Assembly: GCA_030690165.1 (NCBI GenBank)
Contig: JAUYHF010000007.1
Location: forward strand, 131,420 to 195,419
Source: Deltaproteobacteria bacterium
Lineage (GTDB): Bacteria > Desulfobacterota > GWC2-55-46 > UBA9637
Direction of reading: 5' to 3'
Length of the DNA stretch: 64,000 nt
The position numbers were made by a program, and so were the translations under genes. Positions 6,087 to 51,751 of this stretch are shown here, piece by piece; the stretch's first letter is position 1; each line of letters opens with the position of its first letter. A model generated the notes under the pieces. That model was not told the DNA's origin and ran no database searches. It was given only the letters and a program-made list of their open reading frames with translations.

Positions 6087-6090
6087 AAAA

Positions 6091-6170
6091 AGAGTCAGAG
6101 AGTCAGAGTGTCAAAGAGTCAGAGCAATATCAAAAAGTTTGACTCTATGACTCTTTGAATCTTTGACTCT
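6091..6170. repeat. octamer-unit repeat array; left terminal inverted repeat of the HEPN cassette (33-bp IR at 6138-6170)
   Basis: AGAGTCAG-type units 6091-6125 followed by TTTGACTCT-type units 6138-6170; 6138-6170 is the exact reverse complement of 6612-6644. Confidence 0.75.
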
Positions 6171-6185
6171 AAACCGGAGGTTTTT

Positions 6186-6608
6186 ATGGAAGGTTTGGCA
6201 AAAGAGGCAGACAGGTGGTTTAGGCAGGCAGAGAATGATCTGAAGTCAGCAGGATGGAGCCAGCAGGGCGGTTTTTACGCGCATGCGTGTTTCTGGGCTC
6301 AACAAGGTGCTGCAAAGACGCTGCGGGCATTCCTGTTCATGCAAAAGGAGGATGCAAGGGAGACTCGTTCTGTCAGCGAACTCCTTGAAAGGTGCCTTAC
6401 ATACGATGAAGACTTTAAGGCAATTGTTGAATCCGGCAGCAGATTAGATATATATTACAAGACAAGCCGGTATCCTGACAGCCTTCCAGGCGGCATACCT
6501 GCCGAGATTATATCTGCCAGAGATTCCAAAGAGGCGATAAAGATCGCATCGGATATTTTTGCCCTTGTGGAGGAAAAGAGAAAGACGTATATTCCGGAAG
6601 TGATGTGA
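6186..6608 (+). CDS. HEPN domain protein, solo (no nucleotidyltransferase partner)
   Basis: 140 aa helical protein with the HEPN-family RYP signature (YYKTSRYPDSLPGG); own RBS GGAGG at 6176-6180; a position expected to be His is Arg (TRSV). Confidence 0.65.
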   Translation: MEGLAKEADRWFRQAENDLKSAGWSQQGGFYAHACFWAQQGAAKTLRAFLFMQKEDARETRSVSELLERCLTYDEDFKAIVESGSRLDIYYKTSRYPDSLPGGIPAEIISARDSKEAIKIASDIFALVEEKRKTYIPEVM

Positions 6609-6611
6609 AAC

Positions 6612-6699
6612 AGAGTCAAAGATTCAAAGAGTCATAGAGTCAAAATTTTGCTGCTGTTTCAATTACTCTGACTCTGCGACCCTCTGACTCTTTGACTCT
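6612..6699. repeat. octamer-unit repeat array; right terminal inverted repeat of the HEPN cassette (33-bp IR at 6612-6644)
   Basis: 6612-6644 AGAGTCAAAGATTCAAAGAGTCATAGAGTCAAA is the reverse complement of 6138-6170; a second inverted array at 6664-6699. Confidence 0.75.
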
Positions 6700-6715
6700 A
6701 TCAAAAGGAGTCCTA

Positions 6716-7495
6716 TTGCCAGATACCTTAATTTACATCTTCACATTTATTTTCGGCAGCATTGTAGGAAGTTTTTTAAATGTCTGCATCCACCGCATCC
6801 CAGAAGGCAAATCAATAATATTTCCTCCATCCTCTTGTCCGAATTGCAATAATCCTATTGCATTTTATGATAATATTCCTATTGTAAGTTATATTGTCCT
6901 TCTTGGCAGGTGCCGTAGCTGCAAAACTCCTATCTCGCTGCGGTATCCTTTTGTGGAATTTTTAACAGGTCTTTTTGCTATAATGCTTTTACATAAATAT
7001 GGTTTTTCAGTGATGTTTTTTATCTATTTTCCCTTTGTGTCAAGCCTTATCGTAATAACATTCATAGATATTAAATATCGGATAATTCCTGATGTTATAA
7101 GTCTTCCCGGGATTGGTGTAGGCTTGTTGGCTTCTTATTTTTTGCCTGTCGGGATATTGAATTCTGTCATAGGGGTTTTAGTCGGAGGCGGAACCCTTTT
7201 TCTGATTGCCTTTAGCTATCACTTTGTTACAGGCAGGGAAGGCATGGGTGGCGGAGATATAAAGCTCCTTGCAATGATAGGCGCATTTCTTGGTTGGAAA
7301 GCCGTTATAATAACCTTATTCACAGGCTCGTTTATTGGCGCTGCTGCCGGGTTTGTATTGATGCTGGCAAAAGGTAAGGACAGCAAATACGCCATACCCT
7401 TTGGTCCGTTTCTTGCCGTAGGCGCGCTAATTTCCCTCTTTTTTGGAGAATACCTTATAAAATGGTATTTATCGGGTATGCGGGCGGGTATGTGA
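6716..7495 (+). CDS. pilD: prepilin peptidase (A24 family)
   Basis: GSFLNVCIHRIP, CPNC ... CRSC tetracysteine motif and GGGDIKLL region; track ORF starts at TTG 6692 inside the repeat; TTG 6716 after RBS AAAGGAG is the more plausible start. Confidence 0.85.
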   Translation: MPDTLIYIFTFIFGSIVGSFLNVCIHRIPEGKSIIFPPSSCPNCNNPIAFYDNIPIVSYIVLLGRCRSCKTPISLRYPFVEFLTGLFAIMLLHKYGFSVMFFIYFPFVSSLIVITFIDIKYRIIPDVISLPGIGVGLLASYFLPVGILNSVIGVLVGGGTLFLIAFSYHFVTGREGMGGGDIKLLAMIGAFLGWKAVIITLFTGSFIGAAAGFVLMLAKGKDSKYAIPFGPFLAVGALISLFFGEYLIKWYLSGMRAGM

Positions 7496-7498
7496 GCT

Positions 7499-9157
7499 AT
7501 GGATAAAATAAAAAAAACTTGGGGCATAAGAGGCCAGCTTATTGCAGGACTTACGCTTGTAACAGTGGCTGCCATAGCCCTTCTTGGATTTTTAAGCATC
7601 AAGATGCTGGAATGGAGCGCCTTGTTCAGAAAGGCTAAAGAGGCAGAGGTCATTGCCGCGGTTGTTCAAACATTTGTTCAGGACAGGCAGGGGGCAGAGG
7701 CAAAGGGGTTCAGGGATTTTGTAAAAAGTATTATGGAAAAAGGCATAATAAGAGATATGAGCATAACAGATGAAAAGGGAAGGGTATTTTTTGTTACAGG
7801 TGAGGGTGTGCTGACAGACAAAGACGAGGGGAGGCTGCTCTTTTCTGTTAAAGGATTAGCGGTGAAGACTACAGGCGGGGGGTGGTTTGAGGGGGTTGGA
7901 AAGGAATTGTTTATATCAACGTCCTTGAAGCAGGGGTCGGGGGCAGGGGGCCTGGGGCTTGGGAGATTAGTTTTTTCCATGCCTCTTTCGGATATAAAGG
8001 AAGAGGGCGCAAATTTCAGAAGGTTTATCTTTTTCTACTCCTTGTTTGATTCGCTCATTATAATAACGTTAGGCGTCTATCTATTTTCCAGAGGCATAAT
8101 AAGGCCTATGGCTCTTCTTAAAGAGACCGCTGAAAGTATAGCCGGCGGCAGACTTGAACATAGGGTAAATATAAAGCCCTCCAATGAGATAGGGAGTTTT
8201 GCCTTATCTTTCAATATAATGGCTGATAAACTTGAGGAAAAGATAAAGACATTGGAAAGGCTTAATAAAGAACTTACAGCCATGCAGGGAGAATTGATAA
8301 GGTCTGAAAAACTTGCCACTGTTGGAAGGCTTGCAGCAGGCATTGCCCATGAGATAGGAAATCCTCTGGGCGCAATACTCGGTTATGTTGATATACTCAA
8401 AAAAGGCGCAGCCCCCCCCATCACCGTAGCCGCAGGTTTTAGCCTGCATAATGAGGAGGCGCTGGAAATACTTACACGGCTTGAGAAAGAAATATTAAGG
8501 ATTGACATCATAGTGAGGGGCCTTCTTAATTTTTCAAGACCGTCGATCCCGCTCAGCGGGACGAAAGAGGCTATGCATAATATTGATATAAACCGGACAG
8601 TAGAAGATTCCGTTGAAATACTTTTGCCGCAGTTTTCTGCAAACGGCATATCATTTGACCTAAATCTTGACAAGGATGTACCAAATGTCTTCATTGATGA
8701 TGGCAAGCTTAAACAGGTTCTGCTGAATATATTCATCAATGCAAAGGATGCGATGCCTGAAGGCGGAAAGATATTTATAAAAACAGAGGCCAGACCTGCC
8801 CCTGCAAGCCTGCCCCTGCAAGCAGTAAGCAGGGGTAGTAAGCAGGGGGGACAGCGCTCAGAGGTCAGGAGAAGAAAAAACGATATGGCAGATGCGGACA
8901 TTGCAGGCATACGCATTCAAACTTTGGGCCGCAGCTATGTTATAATTTCTATTACTGATACTGGAAGAGGCATCAGGGAAGAAGACATCGGCAAGATATT
9001 CGACCCGTTTTTTACAACAAAAGAGCAAGGGAAAGGGACAGGTTTGGGGCTTGCAGTATCGCTTGGAATTGTTCAGACATTTGGCGGAGATATAAAGGTG
9101 AAGAGCGAAGCGGGAAAGGGAACTATCTTTGAGATTTTACTGCCTACCATACGATAG
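7499..9157 (+). CDS. sensor histidine kinase with HAMP domain, PilS-like
   Basis: Two N-terminal TM segments, HAMP region, H-box HEIGNPLGAI, N-box LLNIFINAKDAM, G-box GTGLGLAVS; repeat-encoded insertion (8796-8860) in the ATPase domain. Confidence 0.8.
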   Translation: MDKIKKTWGIRGQLIAGLTLVTVAAIALLGFLSIKMLEWSALFRKAKEAEVIAAVVQTFVQDRQGAEAKGFRDFVKSIMEKGIIRDMSITDEKGRVFFVTGEGVLTDKDEGRLLFSVKGLAVKTTGGGWFEGVGKELFISTSLKQGSGAGGLGLGRLVFSMPLSDIKEEGANFRRFIFFYSLFDSLIIITLGVYLFSRGIIRPMALLKETAESIAGGRLEHRVNIKPSNEIGSFALSFNIMADKLEEKIKTLERLNKELTAMQGELIRSEKLATVGRLAAGIAHEIGNPLGAILGYVDILKKGAAPPITVAAGFSLHNEEALEILTRLEKEILRIDIIVRGLLNFSRPSIPLSGTKEAMHNIDINRTVEDSVEILLPQFSANGISFDLNLDKDVPNVFIDDGKLKQVLLNIFINAKDAMPEGGKIFIKTEARPAPASLPLQAVSRGSKQGGQRSEVRRRKNDMADADIAGIRIQTLGRSYVIISITDTGRGIREEDIGKIFDPFFTTKEQGKGTGLGLAVSLGIVQTFGGDIKVKSEAGKGTIFEILLPTIR

Positions 9158-9187: not shown

Positions 9188-9243
9188 TTGTAACTCAAGG
9201 CTTTAGCCTTGAAAAACTCAAACCTGAAGGTTTGAGTTACAAG
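9188..9243. repeat. 56-bp structured palindromic element, copy 1
   Basis: TTGTAACTCAAGGCTTTAGCCTTGAAAAACTCAAACCTGAAGGTTTGAGTTACAAG; near-identical copy at 22862-22917; nested complementary arms. Confidence 0.6.
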
Positions 9244-10767: not shown

Positions 10768-11112
10768 TTGCAGGAGAGCCCCTTGAATAAAGAAGCAGAT
10801 GAGAAAGAGGTTTTATCAGAGCTAAAGCATGCCATTATGGAGATTTGCGGCAAACAGGTAGTCAGGTTTGTGCTTTACGGCTCAAGGGCAAGGGGGGATT
10901 ACGACAAAGAGTCGGATATAGACATAGCGATTGTTGTCAGGGGTATGACAAGAGAACTTAAAAACCGGATATTAGATGCTGTGTGTGACATAGAGATTAA
11001 ATATCTTACTCCCCTTTCAACTCTTGTCTTTTCCGAGGAGGATTTTGAGTTTCTGAAAAGCAGGGAGAGAAGGATAGCCCTCGATATCGAAAGGGAAGGG
11101 ATACCGTTATGA
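10768..11112 (+). CDS. minimal nucleotidyltransferase (MNT), antitoxin-like
   Basis: GSRARGDYDKESDIDIAIV is the GS-Xn-DxD nucleotidyltransferase motif; TTG start; overlaps the next ORF by 4 nt. Confidence 0.7.
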   Translation: MQESPLNKEADEKEVLSELKHAIMEICGKQVVRFVLYGSRARGDYDKESDIDIAIVVRGMTRELKNRILDAVCDIEIKYLTPLSTLVFSEEDFEFLKSRERRIALDIEREGIPL

Positions 11113-11513
11113 CGGAAGGGAATAAGAAAGACAATATCAAGATTCAACTTGAGAAGGCATCCGAAATTTTAAAAGAGGCAAATTTGCTTTTTGAGAATAA
11201 CCTTGTAAGAGGCGCAGTTTCAAGGCTCTATTACTATCTGCTTCACACTGTCCGGGCGCTCCTTCTCACCAAAGGGCTTGAACCCAAAAGCCACGAAGGG
11301 GTGTTGAGGGTTTTCGGGCAATATTTTATAAGAGAGGGGATACTGGAGGCAAGGTTTTCCCATATATTCGCAAGGCTGATGAAATACAGGGAGGAGGCTG
11401 ATTACAACCCTGCCTATGTCGTTTCAAAAGATGATTTTGTGGAGTTCAGAAAAGAGGCAGAGGTTATGTGTGACAAGATAAACAGTTATCTGAAGCAGAA
11501 GGGATATGCCTGA
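11109..11513 (+). CDS. HEPN domain protein, partner of the upstream MNT
   Basis: 134 aa helical protein, translationally coupled to MNT (ATGA overlap); typical MNT-HEPN gene order. Confidence 0.65.
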   Translation: MTEGNKKDNIKIQLEKASEILKEANLLFENNLVRGAVSRLYYYLLHTVRALLLTKGLEPKSHEGVLRVFGQYFIREGILEARFSHIFARLMKYREEADYNPAYVVSKDDFVEFRKEAEVMCDKINSYLKQKGYA

Positions 11514-12657: not shown

Positions 12658-12661
12658 AAGA

Positions 12662-12680
12662 CAGGGATCAGGGGTCGGGG
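12662..12680. repeat. left 19-bp inverted repeat flanking the four-helix-bundle gene
   Basis: CAGGGATCAGGGGTCGGGG is the exact reverse complement of 13141-13159. Confidence 0.7.
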
Positions 12681-12744
12681 GCCAGGGAACAGGGAACGAA
12701 AAAACTGGAAACGAAACAGGGGTCATGTATCAGGAGATAAAGCA

Positions 12745-14903: not shown

Positions 14904-14957
14904 AAAGACAGTGATCAGTGGTCAGCGGCCAGTGGTCAGAGAGATTAAAAACGGGAG

Positions 14958-19945: not shown

Positions 19946-20003
19946 AAAGACAGGGGTCAGGGGTCGGAAAGACAGTGGTCAGGGGTCGGAAAGACAGTGG
20001 TCA

Positions 20004-20915
20004 GTGATTTTACTGATCCCTGACCCTCGATCCCTGTATCTATGGAGGGTATTTTTGGAAAAGAAGATATGGGAAGAAAGACGAAAGAAGAAGATTGTTC
20101 TGCCAAAGGAACCCGAATCTGAGAAAAAAGATTATAGAAGATGGACGAAGTATATTATTGCCGCTGTCTTTATTATCCTTTTATTTACCCTCTTAAGGGG
20201 CAAGAAAGAAAAGATAGAGATTCCAGGGCCGGAACAGGAATCAGGGGTCAGGGGTCAGGGGTCAGAAAAACAGGGGGCAGGGGTCGTGGCTCAGAGGTCA
20301 GTGAGTAGTCCAGTCGTTGAGCTGCCGCTGCCGCCTCCGCCTAAAAAAAATACCCCCCCGGAAGTCCTGTTAATAAAGTTAAGCCCAAAGATTGTTTACC
20401 AGGGAACCAAGATAAAGGCAGAGGTTTCAGGCAAGGATGCTGATGAGGATGATGAGGTTACCTATTTTTATGAGTGGCGGAGAAACGATACTGTCTTGCC
20501 TGATAATATCCAGCCGGAGATTGATACAAAGGATTTTAAGAAGGGCGAGCTTATAACCTTGTTTGTTACGCCGTTTGACGGCAAAGACAAGGGGAAGACC
20601 AGATTTTCCAGGACAATTGTTATTGTCAACAGGCCGCCTGAGATAATATCATTCCCGCCTGTGTCTGTTTCCAACGGGAAATATCTGTACGAGGTCAAGG
20701 CAAATGACCCGGATGGCGATGCGCTTACTTATTCTCTTGAAAATGCCCCGTCCGGCATGATAATTGATCCTGCAACAGGCATAATCCGATGGGATATCCC
20801 TGTTACGGCAGATTTAAAATCGGTTACTACCTACAATATAAAGATTGTGGTAAGCGATGGCGATGCCACGGCCTTTCAAGGGTTTTCCATGACCCCTGAT
20901 GTGGAAATTAAATAA
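20004..20915 (+). CDS. membrane-anchored protein with two Ig-like/cadherin-like domains
   Basis: TM segment WTKYIIAAVFIILLFTLL, repeat-encoded linker [13 protein letters not shown], then DADEDDEVTYFYEW and DPDGDALTYSLENAPSGMIIDPATGIIRWDIP; start uncertain (GTG 20004 or TTG near 20055). Confidence 0.5.
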   Translation: MILLIPDPRSLYLWRVFLEKKIWEERRKKKIVLPKEPESEKKDYRRWTKYIIAAVFIILLFTLLRGKKEKIEIPGPEQESGVRGQGSEKQGAGVVAQRSVSSPVVELPLPPPPKKNTPPEVLLIKLSPKIVYQGTKIKAEVSGKDADEDDEVTYFYEWRRNDTVLPDNIQPEIDTKDFKKGELITLFVTPFDGKDKGKTRFSRTIVIVNRPPEIISFPPVSVSNGKYLYEVKANDPDGDALTYSLENAPSGMIIDPATGIIRWDIPVTADLKSVTTYNIKIVVSDGDATAFQGFSMTPDVEIK

Positions 20916-22861: not shown

Positions 22862-22917
22862 TTGTAGCTCAAGGCTTTAGCCTTGATAAACCTTCAAACC
22901 TGAAGGTTTGAGCTACA
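22862..22917. repeat. 56-bp structured palindromic element, copy 2 (between pilN and pilO)
   Basis: TTGTAGCTCAAGGCTTTAGCCTTGATAAACCTTCAAACCTGAAGGTTTGAGCTACAA; paralog of 9188-9243. Confidence 0.6.
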
Positions 22918-22940
22918 AATAGACCTTCTAAAGGAGTCTT

Positions 22941-27392: not shown

Positions 27393-28628
27393 ATGCTGAG
27401 ATACTTAACAGCAGGTGAATCACACGGTAAATATTTGACTGCCATTCTGGAAGGCGCGCCGGCAAATCTTAATTTGGCTGCGGATGATATAAATAAAGAA
27501 CTAAGCCGCAGGCAGATTGGCTACGGCCGCGGCGGCAGAATGGCTATTGAAAAAGATGAAGCAGAGATTACATCGGGGGTAAGGTTTGGCAAGACCATAG
27601 GTTCGCCTATTGCTATGGTTATAAAAAATAGAGATTGGGAGAATTGGAAAGAGGTTATGAATACAGGGGTCAGGGGTCAGGGGTCAGGGGTCAAAGAGAT
27701 TACCCATCCAAGGCCGGGCCATGCGGATCTGGCAGGCGCCTTGAAATATGGCCAGTATGATATTCGCAATATTCTTGAACGTTCCAGCGCAAGGGAAACC
27801 GCGGCGCGGGTTGCTGTTGGCGCAGTATGTAAAAGATTTCTGGATGAGATTGGGATAAAAGTGATGAGTTGGGTGGTGGATATAGCAGGGGTCAGGGGTC
27901 AGGGGTCAGGGGTCAGAGAGGAGAATGATATAGAAGCAATTTTTAAACTGGCAGAAGCATCTGATGTGCGTTGTCCTGATAAAAAGATTGCAGAAAAAAT
28001 GAGAAAGGCGATAGATAGGGCAAGAAAAAACGGCGACAGCCTTGGCGGGATATTTGAGGTTGCTGTAACCGGCGTTCCTCCGGGTCTTGGAAGCCATGTC
28101 CAGTGGGATAGAAAATTAGATGGGAATCTGGCAAGGGCGCTTATGAGCATTCAGGCCATAAAAGGGGTTGAGGCGGGTATAGGGTTTGAAGCGGCTGAGA
28201 GATTTGGATCAGAGGTGCATGATGAGATATTTTATAAAATCTCCCCTGACCCCTCTTTGCCAAAGAGGGGAAAATCATCTCCCCCTTTGGAAAAGGGGGA
28301 TAAAGGGGGATTTTACAGAAAAACCAACAATGCCGGCGGCATAGAGGGAGGCATGAGCAACGGCGAACCGATTATACTCCGGGCTGCGATGAAACCGATA
28401 CCAACATTATATAAACCGCTTCGGTCAATAGATATAAAAACAAAAAAGCAGTTTCAGGCAAGTGTTGAAAGGTCGGATATATGCGCTGTGCCTGCTGCTT
28501 CAGTGGTTGGCGAGGCAGTTGTTGCCTTTGAGATAGCCAATGCCTTTATAGATAAATTTGGCGGCGATTCTATCTATGAGGTAAAAAGGAATTATAAGGG
28601 GTATCTGGAGTATTTGAGGAAGTTTTAA
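27393..28628 (+). CDS. aroC: chorismate synthase
   Basis: [30 protein letters not shown] motifs; 411 aa, about 50 aa longer than typical because of three repeat-encoded in-frame insertions. Confidence 0.9.
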
Positions 28629-32457: not shown

Positions 32458-32462
32458 ATACA

Positions 32463-32548
32463 GGCTATAGGCAAGAGGCGATAGGCTATAGGTAAAAGAA
32501 AAAGACAAGAATATTTTTTCCATTGCCTATAGCCCATCGCCTATAACC
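32463..32548. repeat. inverted heptamer arrays (GGCTATA units) forming a hairpin between accB and accC
   Basis: GGCTATAGGCAAGAGGCGATAGGCTATAGG at 32463-32492 and its inverted counterpart CCTATAGCCCATCGCCTATAACC at 32526-32548; related array at 48975-49004. Confidence 0.7.
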
Positions 32549-32561
32549 TTTTTTAAAACCT

Positions 32562-44546: not shown

Positions 44547-45848
44547 ATGGCCGACAAATTTGACTGCATAATCATTGGCGCCGGTCCTTCCGGCATTGCC
44601 TGCGCATACACTCTGGCAAAGGCAGGGCTGAATGTTATGGTCTTTGAACGGGGAGAATATCCCGGCTCAAAAAATGTCTCAGGCGGGGTTTTGTATTCAA
44701 CCATCCTCAATAAACTCATCCCTGAATTTTGGAAAGATGCGCCTGTGGAAAGGCATGTGGCAAAGCGAAGATATTCCATACTCTCAAAGGATTCTGAGAT
44801 GGCTGTGGAATTAAGTTTTGACAGTTTCAATAACCCTCCCTACAACAACAGCTTCACAGTATTGCGCGCAAAATTTGACAGGTGGTTTGCAAAAAAAGCA
44901 GAGGATGCAGGGGCATTTATATTGACTGAAACAGTGGTCGATGATTTCATCTTTGAGAATGGAAAGATTATCGGGGTTAAGGCGAGGAGGGAGGGTGGCG
45001 ATGTTCTTGCAGATGTGGTTGTTTGCGCAGAAGGCGCAAATTCTCTCCTTGCAGAAAAGGCGGGCCTCAGGAAAAAACCTACAGACCATCAGATGATAAC
45101 CGCTGCCAAAGAGGTCATAAGCCTTCCACGTGAGGCTATAGAAGATAGATTCGGCTTGTCTGATGATGAAGGTGTGACCATAGAGTTTTTCGGCGACGCT
45201 GTTAAAGGGATGATAGGCTCAGGTTTTATCTATACCAATAAAGATTCACTATCCGTTGGTGTTGGCTGTCCCATAGCAGTTATGAAAGAAAATAATATGC
45301 GTCCCAATGATCTTCTTGATGCGTTCAAGTCACATCCGGTGGTAAGAAAGTTTTTAAGGGGAGGGAAGACCGAAGAATTGTCCGCAAAGATGATCCCTGA
45401 ATTGGGCTGCAAGAATCTCTCAAAATTTGCTGCCAATGGTTTACTCATTGTCGGAGATGCGGCAGGTTTGGTAAATCCGTCTCTTTATCGTGAAGGCTCC
45501 AATATGGCGATGGCGTCAGGTGTAATGGCAGCAGAGACGATTCTTGAGGCAAAGAAGAAAAGTAATTTTTCAGAATCGGCGCTGAGCGGGTTTACAAAGA
45601 GATTAAATGACAGCTTCGTTATGAAAGATTTAAAAAGATACGGCGATACGCCGAAGAAGTTATCTGCAATGCCTCAATTTTTCAAAGAATATCCTGATGC
45701 GATTCTAAAAATGGCAGAAGGATATTTCACAATATCAGACATGCCAAAAAAAGAAATGCAGAAACAGGCATGGTCTGCTTTTAAGGACAAGGTCTCTGTA
45801 TGGAGATTTCTGTGGGATATGTATAAGGCAAAGGGGTCGATTCTTTGA
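44547..45848 (+). CDS. fixC: FAD-dependent ETF-quinone oxidoreductase FixC-like
   Basis: FDCIIIGAGPSGIACA FAD fold and GSKNVSGGVLY motif; 433 aa. Confidence 0.75.
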   Translation: MADKFDCIIIGAGPSGIACAYTLAKAGLNVMVFERGEYPGSKNVSGGVLYSTILNKLIPEFWKDAPVERHVAKRRYSILSKDSEMAVELSFDSFNNPPYNNSFTVLRAKFDRWFAKKAEDAGAFILTETVVDDFIFENGKIIGVKARREGGDVLADVVVCAEGANSLLAEKAGLRKKPTDHQMITAAKEVISLPREAIEDRFGLSDDEGVTIEFFGDAVKGMIGSGFIYTNKDSLSVGVGCPIAVMKENNMRPNDLLDAFKSHPVVRKFLRGGKTEELSAKMIPELGCKNLSKFAANGLLIVGDAAGLVNPSLYREGSNMAMASGVMAAETILEAKKKSNFSESALSGFTKRLNDSFVMKDLKRYGDTPKKLSAMPQFFKEYPDAILKMAEGYFTISDMPKKEMQKQAWSAFKDKVSVWRFLWDMYKAKGSIL

Positions 45849-45902: not shown

Positions 45903-45930
45903 TTGTTTAAAACAGGTTGTTTGATATAAT
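45903..45930 (+). promoter_or_regulatory. sigma-70-like promoter with extended -10 for the antitoxin gene
   Basis: TTGTTT, 16-nt spacer, TGATATAAT; RBS AAAGGAGG 45937-45944 before ATG 45950. Confidence 0.4.
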
Positions 45931-45949
45931 CTCCCAAAAGGAGGCAACA

Positions 45950-46180
45950 ATGGTTAAGACATTGCATGCAGTCTATGAACATGGGATATTGAGGCCTTTG
46001 GAGCCGATAGACGATATTGAGGAGAACGCAGAAGTAGAATTGACTCTGAGCATAGAAAAGAAAGTCATTCATCCTATTTTAAGGTTTGCCGGCATATTGA
46101 AGGAAGAAGAGGCAAATCAGATGATGAAGACCGTAGACGATGAGTTTGAGAGGGTTAATCCTGATGAATGGAAAGATTAG
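45950..46180 (+). CDS. small antitoxin-like protein, probable VapB-type partner of the PIN toxin
   Basis: 76 aa; MVKTLHAVYEHGILRPLEP ... AEVELT pattern; overlaps the downstream PIN ORF. Confidence 0.5.
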   Translation: MVKTLHAVYEHGILRPLEPIDDIEENAEVELTLSIEKKVIHPILRFAGILKEEEANQMMKTVDDEFERVNPDEWKD

Positions 46181-46455
46181 CCTTGACACAAATATCGTAA
46201 TACGGCTGTTTAAAAATGATAAAGCTGTTACAAATCTCCTTTCGCGTAACTCAACGATATATCTGCATCCTGAATATTACAAGAAAGACAGCCGATCCAT
46301 ATTCTGCCATCAGATTACAGCTAAAACAAAAAGGGCGTCCAATCCCTGAAAATGACCTATGGATAGCGGCAGTCTGTATTGAAAACAGTCTTCCAATAAT
46401 CACGGCCGATGCGCATTTTGATGACGTTGATGGGTTGGAGGTTGTCAAAATATAA
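46164..46455 (+). pseudogene. PIN-domain (VapC-like) toxin, frameshifted and shortened
   Basis: N-terminal part (ISLDTNIVIRL) is in one frame to 46349; C-terminal part (ENDLWIAAVCIENSLPIITADAHFDDVDGLEV) is in the +1 frame to 46455; combined length about 97 aa is short for PIN. Confidence 0.5.
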
Positions 46456-46632
46456 ATGTTAGTAACGAAGGGCTGAGACTATGCCCGCCAAATGCGGAAA
46501 CGATGATGGAAGAGGGCAAAAGGAATATAGAAGGGCTGGTGGAGAGGTCCAATTTCTTTTTTAGCTATAGAATAAGCTGGTACTTTGATATAGAATGGAG
46601 AAAAATACTAATAATTTAGGGGGTGATTTATA

Positions 46633-46815
46633 ATGAGAGCCACTGCACAAAAAGTTAATCCAGAGGATTTTATCCTTTCGGCCCTTTCTCCAGAGGATCG
46701 GCTCGATGCGGCATTTGAGATTGCTCGCGAGGCGTTCAAAAAGACTCGTTTGACAATGAAAGATATTGATAATGCGGTTAAATCAGTAAGGAGCAAGGCT
46801 TACGAAAAGTTGTAG
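46633..46815 (+). CDS. small orphan addiction-module antitoxin-like protein
   Basis: 60 aa; LSALSPEDRLDAAFEIA resembles a putative addiction-module component family; RBS AGGGGGTG; no toxin follows. Confidence 0.3.
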   Translation: MRATAQKVNPEDFILSALSPEDRLDAAFEIAREAFKKTRLTMKDIDNAVKSVRSKAYEKL

Positions 46816-46856
46816 GGTGGTCACAGCCCACCGGATAAGGAATACAGCATGGATTA

Positions 46857-46941
46857 GGGAGAGGTTCCGCAGGGATGGTGAAGGATAAAGGGATTGGGGT
46901 TGCGATGGTGGAGGGGGATAAGATAGTCACCTGTTTTTATC
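46857..46941. repeat. 85-bp direct repeat, copy A
   Basis: GGGAGAGGTTCCGCAGGGATGGTGAAGGATAAAGGGATTGGGGTTGCGA ... TTTTTATC; about 50-nt core nearly identical to 47687-47768. Confidence 0.7.
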
Positions 46942-47001
46942 ATTTTTGAAACAATAATTTTTAGATATAGTGCTAACAAAGATATTATTAGGAGGTGTCC
47001 T

Positions 47002-47277
47002 ATGACGGTCATTGATTTGGTGGCAAAAGAATTTCATATGAACCCCAAAGAGGTTATAAAGGAAAGCATCGGCACGTATCTGCATCAGAAATTGTCGAAA
47101 GTTGAGGCAGACATCTTCACAATTGCTAAGAAACACGGCGTAAAAGATGTTTTTGAACTTGATGAAAAAATAAAAAAGGGGCTTATCAGCGAAAAGGATT
47201 CATATGATGACTATTTTGCCCTTGACAATCTTGAAGCGGAAAGGGAAAGGACCAAGAAGCTTCTGGAGAAAATTTGA
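47002..47277 (+). CDS. small acidic protein, first gene of a two-gene cassette
   Basis: 91 aa; strong RBS AGGAGG; stop overlaps next start (TGATG). Confidence 0.4.
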   Translation: MTVIDLVAKEFHMNPKEVIKESIGTYLHQKLSKVEADIFTIAKKHGVKDVFELDEKIKKGLISEKDSYDDYFALDNLEAERERTKKLLEKI

Positions 47278-47636
47278 TGCCTTCAATCCACGATCTGGAG
47301 AGGATTGCTGAGATAGAATTCGCTGACATTGTAGCCGGGACTATATTTATTAACCACAAGCTTAGAATATTTCTGACAGATAGCAGCTTTATAGATGTCA
47401 ACCTTTCGCAGAGGCTCCCAGATAAATTCGGTTTCCATTGGGAACGAATGAATAAGGCCGGCGAGGTATTCCGCTACGATAATTTCCCTGATCCAAGCTG
47501 GAAGAATGTCAGCACCTATCCATACCACTTTCATAACAGCGCACAAGAAGGAGTAGAGGCGGCACCTTTTCCGTTGGATGTCATAAAAGGTTTCAGGGCG
47601 TTCATGGAATTTGTTAGAAATAAAGTAAAGGAATGA
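47274..47636 (+). CDS. uncharacterized protein with FHWE ... RYDN ... HFH motifs, putative toxin-like partner
   Basis: 120 aa; translationally coupled to the upstream ORF; family assignment from memory only. Confidence 0.4.
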   Translation: MMPSIHDLERIAEIEFADIVAGTIFINHKLRIFLTDSSFIDVNLSQRLPDKFGFHWERMNKAGEVFRYDNFPDPSWKNVSTYPYHFHNSAQEGVEAAPFPLDVIKGFRAFMEFVRNKVKE

Positions 47637-47686
47637 AAGAGAGTTGGCTGGGATTGCCAGCAGGATGAGAGATATAGAAGGACAGA

Positions 47687-47768
47687 GGGAGAGGTTACGC
47701 AGGGATGGTGAAGGATAAAGGGTTGGGGTTGCGAGGGGTGAGAAGAGTAATCGGTTACGTTTTTTATC
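47687..47768. repeat. 85-bp direct repeat, copy B
   Basis: GGGAGAGGTTACGCAGGGATGGTGAAGGATAAAGGGTTGGGGTTGCGA ... TTTTTTATC. Confidence 0.7.
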
Positions 47769-47777
47769 TAAAAAATT

Positions 47778-48572
47778 ATGAAAACTGAAGAAGATAAATT
47801 TAAACACGAAATAGATATTTTCCGAACTGAAGTCGAATCTGGCATACAATTCTTCTATATGTATCTGGCATTTAATTCCGTCCTTAGTAAGAATAAACAA
47901 GCTCTAAAAATAGTAAATCGAACGCCTTTATTTTGGAACACGAATGTTGGTGCTCTACAGACCTCTTTTTTTATCGTATTGGGACGACTTTTTGACCAAA
48001 ACTCCAACCACAATGTTGATAGGTTGATAGGAGTTGCCCAAAAGCATTCTGATATTTTTTCTGCAGAGGCATTGGAAGTTCGTAAGCGAGCAGGGAGTGC
48101 AAATGCAGGTGAATGGATAAATGACTACATGAAAGACGTTTATGTCCCAACTAACGATGACTTCAGACGCCTGAGAAAATATGTTAGCAAGTATCGCAAA
48201 ATTTATGAGAACACATATCGGGATATAAGGCACAAGGTATATGCTCATAAAGTGCTATCAAATAAGGCTGATGTGCATAATTTATTTGCACGGACCAACA
48301 TTCGTGAAATACAAAAACTATTGATTTTTCTGAATCGAGTTCATGAAGCTCTTTGGCAACTTTTCCATAATGGTCGCAAACCTACATTGAGGGCAATGAA
48401 ATACTCAGTCAGTAGTATTATGAAAAATGTTCTGGCTCCAGAATGGCAAAGCCGACAGATTCAAGAACTGGTGGTGCATGAGACCCAAAAGTTTTTCGAC
48501 ATATTATTATCTATACCCAATAAGCGAGAACAGGAAAAGGACAGGACACTCTACAGGTTGAAGGAACAGTAA
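47778..48572 (+). CDS. uncharacterized protein, possible HEPN-like (Abi-type) defence protein
   Basis: 264 aa, mostly helical; R-x5-H motif RDIRHKVYAH; sits in an accessory islet; assignment tentative. Confidence 0.35.
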   Translation: MKTEEDKFKHEIDIFRTEVESGIQFFYMYLAFNSVLSKNKQALKIVNRTPLFWNTNVGALQTSFFIVLGRLFDQNSNHNVDRLIGVAQKHSDIFSAEALEVRKRAGSANAGEWINDYMKDVYVPTNDDFRRLRKYVSKYRKIYENTYRDIRHKVYAHKVLSNKADVHNLFARTNIREIQKLLIFLNRVHEALWQLFHNGRKPTLRAMKYSVSSIMKNVLAPEWQSRQIQELVVHETQKFFDILLSIPNKREQEKDRTLYRLKEQ

Positions 48573-48664: not shown

Positions 48665-48970
48665 ATGAGCCAATTTGAACAAATATTACAACCACTTGAA
48701 CCCAAAACCCTTGAGGAAAAGCTCTATCTTGTCAGGTTCAAAACTGATACAGAGAGCCATTTGAAGGTTGACTCTGAGAAATGCAGGGTTTGTAAAGATA
48801 AAGGTTGTATCTATATCTGTCCGGCAGATGTTTACAAAATGGATGAGAAGGAGAATATCGTAATCTCTTTTGAGGCGTGTCTTGAATGCGGCACTTGCAG
48901 GATTGCATGTGATTTTATAGAATGGAAAAATCCAAAGGGCGGGTATGGGGTGTGTTATAGATATGGATAA
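48665..48970 (+). CDS. fixX: ferredoxin-like protein FixX
   Basis: CRVCKDKGCIYICP and CLECGTCRIAC cysteine clusters; C-terminal YRYG; 101 aa. Confidence 0.75.
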   Translation: MSQFEQILQPLEPKTLEEKLYLVRFKTDTESHLKVDSEKCRVCKDKGCIYICPADVYKMDEKENIVISFEACLECGTCRIACDFIEWKNPKGGYGVCYRYG

Positions 48971-49009
48971 GACAGGTTATAGGCTATGGGCAAGAGGCGA
49001 TAGGAAAAT

Positions 49010-50188
49010 ATGAAAGACATCATTATAGCCGGCGCAGTCAGAACCCCTATTGGGTCTTTTAACGGGGCATTGAGTAATATCCCTGCTACAGGGCTTGGCA
49101 GTATTGCTATAAACGGGGCAATAAGCGGGGCAGGCATTAAACCAGCAGATGTTGGCGAGGTCATTATGGGAAATGTCCTCAGCGCTGGCATTGGTCAGGC
49201 GCCTGCAAGGCAGGCGGCTATTGGCGCGGGTCTGCCTTATGGGGTTAATTGTCTGGCAGTAAATAAGGTCTGCGGCTCAGGATTAAAGGCTGTGATGCTG
49301 GCGGCACAGGCAATTGCCCTTGGTGATGCAGATATAATCGTTGCCGGTGGCATGGAGAACATGAGCCGTGCTCCACACCTCCTTGAAAAGGCAAGGTTCG
49401 GTTACAGGATGGGGAATGGCGAGATTATTGATAGTATGATTAAAGACGGCCTGTGGGATGTTTATAATAACCTTCACATGGGTTCTTGCGCTGAGATTGT
49501 TGCTGAAAAATACAAAATCAGCAGGGAAGATCAGGATAGATACGGATTGCAGAGCTATAAGAGGGCAATAGATGCTCAGAAAAATGGTTGCTTCAATGAT
49601 GAGATTATTCCGATAACGCTCCCGGCTGGACGTGATAAATTTAAGAGTTTAACAATGGATGAAGAGCCCACAAGACACGACTTTGCGAGATTTGCAGAGC
49701 TTTCTCCTGTTTTTAAAGAGGGCGGCAGTATAACAGCAGGGAATTCTTCAAAGATAAGCGACAGCGCAGCAGCGGTTGTTGTGATGTCAGGGGATAAGGC
49801 AAAGGAGTTGGGCATACAACCGATAGCAAGGATTGTTGCATATTCTTCGCAGGGTGTTGAGCCGGAGATGTTCAGCATCGCACCTGTCGGCGCAATCAAA
49901 AAAGTTTTAGAAAAGACAGGACTGAGTTTGAAGGATATTGATCTGTTTGAGATAAATGAGGCATTTGCAGTATCCATGCTTGCAGTTATAAAAGAGCTTG
50001 ATTTAGATGAGACTAAGTTAAACATTCATGGAGGGGCCATTGCATTAGGACATCCGATTGGCGCAAGCGGCGCAAGGATTTTAACGACTCTGCTTTATGC
50101 TATGAAAAGGAAAAATGCAAAGAGAGGCATTGCGGCCATCTGCATTGGCGGCGGCGAGGCAGTGGCAATGCTGGTGGAGAGGATATAA
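49010..50188 (+). CDS. acetyl-CoA acetyltransferase (thiolase II)
   Basis: Thiolase motifs VNKVCGSGLKAV, NIHGGAIALGHPIGASGARIL, GIAAICIGGGE; 392 aa. Confidence 0.95.
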   Translation: MKDIIIAGAVRTPIGSFNGALSNIPATGLGSIAINGAISGAGIKPADVGEVIMGNVLSAGIGQAPARQAAIGAGLPYGVNCLAVNKVCGSGLKAVMLAAQAIALGDADIIVAGGMENMSRAPHLLEKARFGYRMGNGEIIDSMIKDGLWDVYNNLHMGSCAEIVAEKYKISREDQDRYGLQSYKRAIDAQKNGCFNDEIIPITLPAGRDKFKSLTMDEEPTRHDFARFAELSPVFKEGGSITAGNSSKISDSAAAVVVMSGDKAKELGIQPIARIVAYSSQGVEPEMFSIAPVGAIKKVLEKTGLSLKDIDLFEINEAFAVSMLAVIKELDLDETKLNIHGGAIALGHPIGASGARILTTLLYAMKRKNAKRGIAAICIGGGEAVAMLVERI

Positions 50189-50190
50189 AC

Positions 50191-50256
50191 ATGGATATCA
50201 AAACCATCGGTATAATCGGCGCAGGCATAATGGGTTCCGGCATAGACAGGGTATAG
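50191..50256 (+). pseudogene. duplicated 5' fragment of the 3-hydroxybutyryl-CoA dehydrogenase gene (21-codon remnant)
   Basis: ATGGATATCAAAACCATCGGTATAATCGGCGCAGGCATAATGGGTTCCGGCATAG matches the first 57 nt of hbd at 50903 with about 5 mismatches, then hits a stop; abuts the thiolase stop. Confidence 0.6.
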
Positions 50257-50350
50257 CACTACACTCTGTGTTGTGGTGTTTAAATAGTTTATTGAAAAGG
50301 TTTGAATATAAAGCCCTTATAATGTAAAATTGCAAGAAAAGGAGACGTTC

Positions 50351-50575
50351 ATGCCAACAACACAGAAACAAAAAGATATAGTGTATGTCAAACAGTATGT
50401 AACCGATGCAAAAGGGCATAAGATGGCTGCTATTCTTGATATAAAAGAATTGGCAAGAGTCCAAGAGCTGCTGGAAGACCTTGCAGATCTGAAGGCAATT
50501 GAAGAAAGGGTGTGCGAAAAGGAAGAAAGTTACGAGGCATACAGCCGAAAGAGAAAGTCTTCCCTCCATGTATAA
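50351..50575 (+). CDS. antitoxin of a RelE/ParE-type toxin-antitoxin module
   Basis: 74 aa from ATG 50351 (RBS AAAAGGAG); stop overlaps the toxin start by 8 nt (ATGTATAA). Confidence 0.5.
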   Translation: MPTTQKQKDIVYVKQYVTDAKGHKMAAILDIKELARVQELLEDLADLKAIEERVCEKEESYEAYSRKRKSSLHV

Positions 50576-50822
50576 ACTCGTCATCAAAAACTCTGCAAAG
50601 AAAGAGCTCGACGATATTCCTGCTGCTCAATTCTTAAAGATTGATGCCGCAATTCTGTTATTAAAGACAAATCCGCATCCATTTCCACAGTCAAAAAAAC
50701 TAAAAGGTTAAGACAAGTGCCGGCTTCGTGTGGGTGACTACAGGGTTGTTTACGCTGTTGATGAAAAAGAGAAGAACATAACAATCTATCGGATACGTCA
50801 TAGAAAAGAGGTTTACCGCTAA
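50568..50822 (+). pseudogene. RelE/ParE-family toxin interrupted by an in-frame TAA (50709-50711)
   Basis: MYKLVIKNSAKKELDDIP ... SKKLKG-stop-DKCRLRVGDYRVVYAVDEKEKNITIYRIRHRKEVYR; both halves in the same frame and together match RelE/ParE. Confidence 0.6.
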
Positions 50823-50902
50823 ATGTACGCCATGCACAAGGATTCTTATGAAAGGCTGTAATATGAGAGAAAGAGGGGCATTCCCAGCATTTTTATAGAA
50901 TT

Positions 50903-51751
50903 ATGGACATCAAAACCATCGGTATAATCGGCGCAGGCACAATGGGCTCCGGCATAAGCCAGGTTATGGCATTATCAGGCTTTGAAGTCATAATGATGGA
51001 TATGAAGGATGAGTTTGTTCGGAGGGGGCTGGAGAATATAAAAAATGGCCTTGGTAAGATGCTTGAAAAGGCAAAAATAACCGCTGAAGAAAAAGAAAAA
51101 ACTATTGCAAGGATTCGCACTACCATCAGACTTGAAGACATGGCAAAGGTAGATTTTGTAATAGAGGCAGCATCCGAGATGGCGGAATTGAAATTAGATA
51201 TATTCAGAAGGCTTGATATAATCTGCCGCAAGGATACTATCCTTGCAACAAACACATCCTCCATACCAATTACACGTATAGCCTCTGCGACGAAAAGGGA
51301 AGACAAGGTTATCGGAATGCATTTCATGAACCCTGCGCCTGTAATGAAGCTCGTGGAGATAATCAGGGGAACGAACACATCTGGCGAGACATTTGCCGCA
51401 GTCAAAGGTCTTACTGAAAAGATTGGCAAGATTCCCGTAGAATCCAAAGACCGCCCTGGTTTTATAATGAATAGAATCCTTATGCCTATGATAAACGAGG
51501 CTGTCTTTGCATTTATGGATGGGGCTGCGTCTGCCGAAGATATTGATAAGGCAATGACACTCGGCGCAAATCAGCCAATAGGGCCTCTGGCGCTGGCTGA
51601 TCTAATCGGCCTCGATACAGTGTTTTCAATTATGGAAAGCATATACAGTGAGACCAAAGACCCAAAACACCGGCCATGCCAGCTGCTTAAAAGATATGTG
51701 GATGCAGGGGAGCTGGGCCGGAAAACAGGGAAAGGGTTTTATAAATATTGA
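50903..51751 (+). CDS. hbd: 3-hydroxybutyryl-CoA dehydrogenase
   Basis: NAD-binding GIIGAGTMGSGI, C-terminal dimerisation domain; 282 aa. Confidence 0.9.
   Translation: MDIKTIGIIGAGTMGSGISQVMALSGFEVIMMDMKDEFVRRGLENIKNGLGKMLEKAKITAEEKEKTIARIRTTIRLEDMAKVDFVIEAASEMAELKLDIFRRLDIICRKDTILATNTSSIPITRIASATKREDKVIGMHFMNPAPVMKLVEIIRGTNTSGETFAAVKGLTEKIGKIPVESKDRPGFIMNRILMPMINEAVFAFMDGAASAEDIDKAMTLGANQPIGPLALADLIGLDTVFSIMESIYSETKDPKHRPCQLLKRYVDAGELGRKTGKGFYKY

Follow-up and report, generated by a model that had tools for sequence, protein, structure and literature searches.

TumE-TumA (DUF6516/PF20126) was defined and validated as a translation-targeting toxin-antitoxin (TA) superfamily by Durairaj et al. 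(Nature 2023, PMC10584680), in which growth arrest and neutralisation by the partner were demonstrated for six gammaproteobacterial pairs only and the RNase activity of TumE itself is called unproven. Among non-coding repeats, GTAG-tagged repetitive extragenic palindromes (REPs) are palindromes of 20-40 bp that carry a GTAG tag 5' and are combined with further motifs in bacterial interspersed mosaic elements (BIMEs; PMC3733652). Here we describe a 64-kb stretch of a deltaproteobacterial genome (64,000 nucleotides of contig JAUYHF010000007.1; hereafter the window, to whose numbering all positions refer) in which a TumE-TumA-type gene pair, tumAE, is bracketed by two copies of a G-rich non-coding element between the genes fixC and fixX. 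With a probability of roughly 55%, we read tumAE as one unit of a stack of four TA or abortive-infection (Abi) modules, with the G-rich element as a spacer in the joints where modules have been gained and lost by recombination.

A TumE-TumA module between copies of a repeated spacer

The initial annotation had placed two G-rich direct repeats of 85 bp around a two-gene cassette. Both copies were found at the positions given there when 46500-48300 was read through and the two stretches were aligned. A core, GGGAGAGGTT[C/A]CGCAGGGATGGTGAAGGATAAAGGG, lies at 46857-46892 and 47687-47722 with one mismatch in 36 nt; past a 1-nt indel, TTGGGGTTGCGA comes next in both, and TTTTTATC closes both copies (46934-46941 and 47761-47768). 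The window contains the 25-mer of the core exactly two times, and none of 100 dinucleotide-preserving shuffles contained it. The extent of 85 bp had to be revised, as similarity reaches ~40 nt further 5', to 46817 and 47646. A profile of the full copies matched 46817-46942 (nhmmer E = 4e-35) and 47646-47771 (E = 1e-31), so that the repeat measures ~126 nt, and its extra 5' part is a hairpin directly 3' of the upstream stop codon. A degenerate third copy was detected at ~46477-46548 (E = 0.026 with a three-copy profile, 4.6e-5 with a six-copy profile). We conclude that a lineage-specific mosaic non-coding spacer of ~126-140 nt is present in three copies, all oriented like the genes, and that the two repeats are two of these.

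From 5' to 3' the element consists of module H, a GTAG tag with a 5-7-bp GC-rich hairpin (GGTGGKC-N3-GCCCACC); module A, GGATRAG..ATAGAAGG; module B, the core, GGGAGAGGTTCCGCAGGGATGGTGAAGGATAAAGGG; module C, (A)TTGGGGTTGCGAGGGG...; and module T, a 3-5-bp stem of variable sequence followed by a T-run. Alignment, repeat search and nhmmer together delimited copy 1 to 46812-46952 and copy 2 to 47644-47772, both on the plus strand. In copy 1 the GTAG tag (46812-46815), within which the TAG stop of a 60-aa open reading frame (ORF) falls, is followed by the hairpin (46816-46832), the G/GGA-rich core (46857-46905), a short GGTG..CACC stem, the closing TTTTTATC and a ATTTTTGAA tail. Copy 2 has a GCTGG/CCAGC hairpin (47647-47661), the core (47687-47734), a GTAA..TTAC stem and TTTTTTATC (47760-47768). 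The degenerate copy (46471-46562, plus strand) has a GGGC..GCCC hairpin and ATAGAAGGGCTGGTGGAGAGGTCC, then a T-run, and the G-rich core is absent. Element copies contain 35-46% G and 7-17% C. The two window copies contain nine and six GGA, where 2.6 are expected, and six and four GGAT, where 0.8 are expected. As had been noted initially, a gene starts close behind each repeat, at 47002 (60 nt beyond copy 1) and at 47778 (9 nt beyond copy 2).

The bracketed genes had been described as two coupled genes of 91 and 120 aa whose FHWE, RYDN and HFH motifs could not be assigned. The coupling was borne out, since the toxin ATG (47277) and the TGA of the 91-aa gene share 1 nt; the toxin has 119 aa, because its start is this ATG, as in all close homologues. 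The toxin (47277-47636, plus strand) matched Pfam PF20126, TumE (E = 1e-12; 48.3 bits against a cut-off of 23.4; profile positions 1-80 of 81, residues 32-111), and has 387 homologues at E <= 1e-8. The 91-aa gene (47002-47277, plus strand), with AGGAGG seven bases before its ATG, encodes a TumA-type antitoxin of the MJ0235 family (PF27273, precomputed Pfam hit), and an MJ0235-family partner lies upstream of TumE in 8/8 close-relative loci fetched. The FHWE, RYDN and HFH motifs are invariant or nearly so in 25 homologues, the invariant residues being H54 W55 E56, R66 D68 N69 and H84 H86, which we propose as candidate catalytic residues. The guess of a toxin-antitoxin pair thus proved right, given the PF20126 toxin and its conserved upstream partner; a match to a non-defence family, together with a repeat occurring nowhere else, had been named as what would speak against it, and the family is a TA family and the repeat does occur elsewhere (below).

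By its sequence, the pair is a type II TA module of the TumE-TumA superfamily with an MJ0235-type antitoxin and predicted toxicity, the TumE protein being a translation-inhibiting toxin with presumed RNase activity. With the superfamily it shares the bicistronic layout with a small partner upstream and the DUF6516 toxin downstream, the stop/start overlap, the TumE domain and the conserved His/Glu/Arg/Asp motifs. In contrast to the tested gammaproteobacterial pairs, in which TumA is RelB-like, the antitoxin here is of the MJ0235 type. The NCBIfam TumE equivalog (NF045777) gave 13.9 bits against a cut-off of 90, which puts the protein outside that equivalog group. The score far under the cut-off and the other antitoxin type therefore define a distant TumE subfamily. 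In sequence searches of the small proteins against PADLOC and the PDB, TumE gave a weak PDC-M44B match (E = 0.004) and the 91-aa antitoxin nothing useful.

Module content of the fixC-fixX junction and distribution of the element

The left border of the islet is a fixC-type electron-transfer flavoprotein (ETF)-quinone oxidoreductase gene (44547-45848, plus strand; homologues are annotated FAD-dependent or ETF-quinone oxidoreductase), and the right border a fixX-type ferredoxin gene (48665-48970, plus strand; tblastn to relatives and junction comparison). The two genes share an ATGA overlap in one outgroup locus (L007; loci used for comparison carry an L number) and abut in three others (L005, L008 and L009), and they are 2.8 kb apart in the window. 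Because the outgroup genes overlap or abut, we read the 2.8 kb as an insertion into a translationally coupled junction. Four modules fill it, AF2212-PIN, the 60-aa ORF, tumAE and AbiU2, with every gene on the plus strand. The first begins with an AF2212-like (VapB-type) antitoxin (45917-46180; Pfam PF01954, E = 2.9e-7), a module also found behind fixC in L085. Its PIN (VapC-type) toxin (46140-46455; ORF list and Pfam) is split over two frames, 46140-46349 and 46216-46455, of which only the C-terminal ORF matched Pfam PIN (E = 1.4e-7); it is probably a pseudogene decaying beside the intact antitoxin. The 60-aa ORF (46633-46815) has a Shine-Dalgarno sequence and is called as a gene in a Logan contig; with only a weak VapB15-like match (E = 0.069), it is possibly an orphan antitoxin. 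Beyond tumAE and copy 2 follows the gene of a 264-aa HEPN_AbiU2 protein (47778-48572; Pfam PF18734, E = 2.6e-21).

The same junction carries different modules in related genomes. With a FixC 94% identical, L083 has a ribbon-helix-helix (RHH)-PIN_3 pair, an 89-aa ORF, a 386-aa ORF, a 50-aa ORF and DUF6933, and a nucleotidyltransferase (MNT)-HepT pair past fixX; L084 (FixC 92% aa) has RHH-PIN_3 only. A frameshifted HepT-like gene occupies the site in L002 (FixC 89%), and 62aa-PIN, MNT-HepT and further genes occupy it in L086/L087 (FixC 85%). L003 (FixC 85%) has a 4.8-kb insert with ORFs that, judged by their sequence, resemble restriction-modification genes; one of them, of 436 aa, is a putative DNA methyltransferase. 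Several contigs (L088, L089) break within ~35 nt past fixC, as expected of a hypervariable spot. The related genomes thus show empty, one-module and multi-module states of the site, and the locus gives a sequence-resolved view of TA and abortive-infection modules piling up at a 4-nt overlap of two coupled housekeeping genes. In L005, an empty-site relative, the short fixC-fixX spacer (2887-2921) is an octamer tract (GTCAGGAGTCAGAAGTCAGGAGTCAGGAG), and therefore G-rich tandem repeats fill this junction in other members of the lineage too. In its array downstream of fixC, the Hainich groundwater relative L086 has a second repeated non-coding sequence, a 'P-box' (TTGACCTAAAATTCASTAAAAGATGCRTGTRGACA..), before two successive modules (7006-7055 and 7903-7950).

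The distribution of the element was examined with a six-copy nhmmer profile over the window and 97 loci (1.13 Mb in total). Matches were obtained in the window (three), L002, L083 (two), L086/L087 (split halves) and L090 (two), all on the gene strand and between TA-type modules only. A 20-mer of the core had one match in JGI metagenomes (L002) and none in 185,579 species genomes or in viral contigs; a hairpin 25-mer had none in viral contigs, and blastn with the cassette and its repeats found no match in plasmid or phage collections. The search for the core elsewhere that had been proposed initially thus located copies in L002 and other relatives' loci. In L002 a whole element lies 74 nt past the fixC stop, with 15 nt between it and the start of the HepT-like gene. 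A full copy in L083 adjoins the ATG of the 386-aa gene, and hairpin-only modules lie behind PIN_3. In L090, the closest tumAE relative (93% aa), the element follows the tumE stop at a distance of 9 nt, the same arrangement as the window has, and is itself followed by an Xre-like module with a clear TTGACA-17-TAATGT promoter and then by a partial element. The window also holds an intact MNT-HEPN pair without the spacer element (10768-11513), and TA modules of this genome are therefore not generally accompanied by the element.

In L086 the element is split by an 813-nt segment carrying MNT-HepT, between ..AAAGGGGTTG and GGATTGCGGG... The 5' part ends in ..GATAAAGGGGTTG, the 3' part runs from GTTGGGATTGCGGGAG.. 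up to the T-run, and the two halves, once rejoined, match the intact L083 copy. The segment is inserted precisely in the core at GTTG, with GTTG on both sides. Such precision speaks for a reading in which the element is the attachment site of a dedicated, integron-like system of cassette capture, with its recombinase encoded elsewhere and the G-rich core as the recombination site. The single orientation of the cassettes, an element at each joint, the strain-variable content and the identity of the core across diverged genomes favour the same reading. We nevertheless regard it as unlikely: attC-like symmetry and an RYYYAAC...GTTRRRY pair are missing, and with so little C the top strand could not fold back on itself; there is no integrase in the vicinity, breakpoints vary between copies, and the outermost modules, the one that follows fixC and the one that precedes fixX, lack the element. 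Doubtful to the same degree is that the spacer is the recognition site of a new capture mechanism, in which a trans factor would read the G-rich core and crossover would occur around GTTG. If so, the mechanism would stack TA and abortive-infection modules in housekeeping operons of this groundwater deltaproteobacterial lineage, and would be an analogue of integron attC/attI with an unrelated site architecture.

Core constraint, and proposed transcription and recombination of the spacer

Between the window and L002 the core is identical over 37 consecutive bases, even though identity at fixC four-fold sites is 71% and the element flanks have diverged; the chance of an identical 37-nt core at 71% is 0.71^37, ~3e-6. 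In L086 (FixC 85% aa) the core differs at two to three positions only. Because it is identical between genomes with 71% identity at fixC four-fold sites, we conclude that the core is constrained. This argues against the repeats being a neutral by-product, that is, leftover intergenic DNA spread by local duplication or unequal crossing-over and without function. The copies are found only locally, in the islet, several of them are truncated or degenerate, and neighbouring modules are decaying (PIN and RelE frameshifted here, HepT frameshifted in L002), all of which would suit such an origin; yet the core is identical at 71% neutral-site identity and near-identical in L086 while the flanks have drifted, and we consider the neutral explanation quite improbable.

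Coding and quadruplex explanations for the constraint were rejected. A leader peptide from an upstream ORF (MVKDKG..., ATG/GTG-AAG-GAT-AAA-GGG) is frameshifted in copy 2 by the 1-nt indel, and its ends differ among copies; none of three substitutions in the 27-nt core falls at a third position, so there is no third-position bias. As a check for spurious ORFs, concatenated six-frame translations of the element were compared with a collection of 5.8 billion proteins and returned nothing at E <= 10. Canonical G-quadruplexes (loops <= 7) are present in 2/6 copies only. Since neither a reading frame nor a G-quadruplex explains the constraint, the core sequence itself is taken to be read as DNA or RNA, and we infer a factor that reads it.

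At the RNA level, the hairpin starts 0-22 nt past the upstream stop codon in 5/8 copies. Its cells are paired in 79% of cases over 11 hairpin copies, against 26-46% in slid controls, with double changes such as GGTGG/CCACC versus GCTGG/CCAGC and T-A versus T.G. Five of the six full copies end in a 3-5-bp stem and a T-run (GGTG/CACC, GTAA/TTAC, GGGG/CCCC, GGG/CCC), a layout that recurs with other sequences in L002, L086 and L090. No convincing -35/-10 pair of a sigma-70 promoter was found in or after the element, where promoter-like sites fall below the shuffle mean. The AbiU2 gene starts 9 nt past the T-run of copy 2, without a Shine-Dalgarno sequence and without space for a promoter, and must therefore rely on read-through. 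In L083 the 3' end of the element provides GGAGG just before the ATG of the next gene. Rfam 15 gave nothing at gathering score over the window and only chance-level matches at E <= 10 over 46400-47850 (SNORD116, E = 1.4; CsrB, E = 8.9). The spacer, if transcribed, probably also acts as a 3' untranslated region (3'UTR) and weak terminator; its G-rich, C-poor untranslated stretch would, we reason, be a poor Rho-loading site.

These features are the substance of another explanation, in which the element is mainly a cis-acting RNA, a 3'UTR and leader. The hairpin would protect the upstream mRNA, the GGA-rich core would bind a CsrA/RsmA-like or other protein or the 30S subunit, and the weak terminator would set how much transcription passes into the next module and, at the end of the array, into fixX; the element would then recur because this function is selected for at each joint, and not through recombination. 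The constrained core, the excess of GGA and GGAT in both window copies, the dependence of AbiU2 on read-through, the GGAGG supplied in L083 and an element orientation that is always that of the genes all agree with it. In addition, GCAGGGAUGG resembles RUACARGGAUGU, the CsrA consensus from in vitro selection (SELEX), and together with the GGA density it hints at a possible CsrA-type binder. On the other side, the folds are not significant, Rfam models including CsrB/Rsm gave nothing better than the E = 8.9 above, the GGA motifs are only partly conserved between copies, and the element is split or truncated where the neighbouring genes stay. No csrA gene was found in the window. We regard a purely RNA-level explanation as possible and give it the second place. 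A transcribed spacer is itself compatible with the recombination account, and the two compete mainly on why the core is conserved.

Returning to recombination, we infer that modules may be added, lost and swapped by recombination at or within the spacers. Likely routes would be homologous (Campbell-type) integration with loop-out, unequal crossing-over and occasional illegitimate insertion. A circle of tumAE and one spacer, recombining with a resident spacer, would yield spacer-tumAE-spacer, and the reverse reaction would loop the module out; a new module would thereby end up with a spacer copy on both sides, and tumAE would be excisable between its two repeats. The transcribed spacer would serve as the 3'UTR of the upstream module, with its stop-proximal hairpin and weak terminator, and as the leader of the downstream one. 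For RecA-dependent exchange to be efficient in Escherichia coli, a shared stretch as long as the 36-37-nt identical core is close to the minimum known.

A second insertion in the window offers a precedent, as it has the pattern expected of single-crossover, Campbell-type integration of circular DNA. Between the genes for thiolase and 3-hydroxybutyryl-CoA dehydrogenase (hbd) lies a RelB-like/RelE-like module (insert 50245-50894), in which the antitoxin (50330-50575) is RelB-like and the RelE/ParE-like toxin is frameshifted. On both sides of the insert stands the hbd 5' end, duplicated as a direct repeat of 62 nt (50183-50244 and 50895-50956, 90% identical). The thiolase-side copy equals the uninterrupted thiolase-hbd junction of L083, and the copy heading hbd has three substitutions. 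Smaller changes were seen as well, in the form of slip deletions between G-runs of 16 nt in L090 and 8 nt in L083. On an unrelated contig, L097, 34-nt promoter-like direct repeats (ATTGCGAAGATTATCAAAATARGTTAATATAC; ~1095-1128 and ~1515-1550) flank a tumAE pair of 87% aa identity. The split element and P-box of L086, the slip deletions and the L097 repeats point to the same kind of shuffling at non-coding joints. The initial suggestion of a recombination site for cassette exchange is therefore indirectly supported: the same element separates different modules at fixC-fixX, and empty sites and a split element exist. Host recombination is favoured over a dedicated site-specific system because breakpoints vary and no recombinase lies nearby.

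Several observations weigh against this account and its transcribed spacer. Neither the window nor the syntenic 21 kb of L083 was found to contain a recombinase, a transposase or an integron integrase. The breakpoints are scattered (after GGAGAGGTCC in the degenerate copy, at the 16-nt deletion in L090, at the 8-nt deletion in L083 and at GTTG in L086), which does not fit one defined crossover site. Neither a tumAE-less allele nor a circular junction was seen, and exact-protein look-ups of four islet proteins gave one Logan contig. The sample is ~10 element copies from a handful of metagenome contigs. Homologous recombination alone leaves the identity of the core across genomes unexplained. 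As for the RNA, covariation in the hairpin is weak, with three double-change cells and a score that 74 of 500 shuffles reach, so that the proposed fold and covariation check came out with well-paired hairpin cells and covariation not significant against shuffles. A terminator scan (GC-rich stem of >= 5 bp plus U-run) called only the degenerate copy (46533-46550), copies 1 and 2 having 4-bp stems (GGTG/CACC and GTAA/TTAC) ahead of the T-run. Whole-element folds (z = +0.55 and -1.6) are no better than shuffles on both strands, and a globally structured RNA or riboswitch was dropped for this reason. The initial idea of a transcribed leader or attenuator is thus weakly supported, by the recurring 5' hairpin and the short stem with T-run, against folds like those of shuffles and the lack of an Rfam match.

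Even if the core proves to be no recombination or binding site, the locus remains of use as a case of Campbell-type gain of modules in nature and of a distant TumE subfamily that has an MJ0235-type antitoxin. If the core is a recombination or protein-binding site, it would point to an integrase-independent or trans-acting route to arrays of defence and TA genes.

Other repeats in the window and comparison with known repeat systems

Repeats of other kinds are common in the window. Tandem repeats of 7-8 nt (CAGGGGT, CAGTGGT, AGGCTAT, AGAGTCAG and others), G-rich on the coding strand, fill many spacers between co-directional genes, for example at 12658-12744, 14904-14957, 19946-20003, 20233-20301, 27664-27693, 27886-27916, 32458-32561 and 48971-49009. 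Some are inverted pairs forming long terminator-like hairpins (32458-32561), others are 'one-armed', and they recall the heptamers of cyanobacterial short tandemly repeated repetitive (STRR) sequences. Octamer-repeat hairpin elements of the (AGAGTCAG)n type also flank a solitary HEPN gene (6186-6608; region 6087-6700) between argJ and a prepilin peptidase gene. Its inner arms (6133-6170/6612-6649) are 97% complementary over 38 nt and its outer arms (6091-6128/6662-6699) 87%; a palindromic element is thus found, in inverted copies, on either side of the gene. A 55-nt nested palindrome (TTGTARCTCAAGGCTTTAGCCTTGA..TCAAACCTGAAGGTTTGAGYTACAA) occurs in two copies, 9188-9242 and 22862-22918, 93-96% identical and downstream of genes; it is a separate REP-like element.

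The spacer element shares with REPs and BIMEs a short GC-rich GTAG palindrome, a position just 3' of ORFs, a mosaic association with other motifs and plausible transcription. A palindrome with an unpaired GTAG at one end is present, as GTAG plus GGTGGKC-N3-GCCCACC, with the exact tag in 6/11 copies. Dispersed high copy number and inverted pairs, the other hallmark of GTAG REPs, were not observed in the 1.13 Mb of window and loci, a local test. The element differs further in being found in one islet of the available sequence, in a single orientation and without inverted doublets, and in its long asymmetric G-rich core, which REPs lack. In L091-L095 (TumE 88%, another neighbourhood with an adjacent ABC-F gene) the hairpin module occurs alone, fused to the tumA-proximal TTTTTAGATATAAT region, and the boundary of a 117-nt indel between L091 and L095 falls exactly at the 5' edge of the tag. 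This boundary would fit a hairpin that is a GTAG-tagged REP, with cassettes moved as single-stranded DNA by a REP-associated tyrosine transposase (RAYT) or an IS200/IS605-type HUH enzyme acting in trans. So would GTAG directly 5' of a 7-bp GC-rich palindrome in the 6/11 copies, which is the architecture of GTAG REPs (PMC3733652), and the location downstream of ORFs between co-directional genes, typical of REPs. However, the window has three copies in 64 kb, all within 1.3 kb (46471-47661) and in one orientation, with none in its other 61 kb or in the relatives' flanks, whereas REPs are normally dispersed at high copy number; inverted REP doublets are absent, and no RAYT or TnpA was found in the available sequence (the 64-kb window and short contigs). 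We consider this origin very unlikely.

With integron arrays, including the TA cassettes of chromosomal superintegrons, the islet shares small cassettes arranged in tandem and in one orientation, of which many are TA modules, as well as a non-coding element that recurs and a strain-variable content. It differs in that attC architecture, intI, attI and a single crossover point are all absent from it. When attC was tried as a model, the R''-L''...L'-R' symmetry and the RYYYAAC/GTTRRRY sites were absent, no RYYYAAC occurred on the element strand, the top strand had a C content of 8-12%, and neither strand folded better than shuffles. In a search for intI, attI and Pc, no integrase was found among the L083 genes flanking the islet; the window ORFs share that layout, and only some of them were Pfam-scanned. 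With Campbell-type attL/attR insertions, the shared features are direct repeats on both sides of the module, identical in the core and diverged in the arms, and the native-copy/foreign-copy pattern of the hbd-5' duplication in the window; the differences are the absence of an integrase and a repeat that is a shared spacer, not a tRNA or gene end. CsrB/RsmY/RsmZ sponge RNAs are alike in length (~120-130 nt), in their 6-9 GGA motifs and in a 3' hairpin with a U-run, and unlike the element, which has no promoter of its own and no Rfam match, carries its GGA motifs outside hairpin loops and stands within an operon-like array.

A recurrent non-coding spacer with a constrained core has no described counterpart among these systems. 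The element resembles attC in role, not in architecture, and the islet as a whole neatly illustrates how TA modules accumulate in a stack with mosaic repeats as spacers, rather than being a new kind of system.

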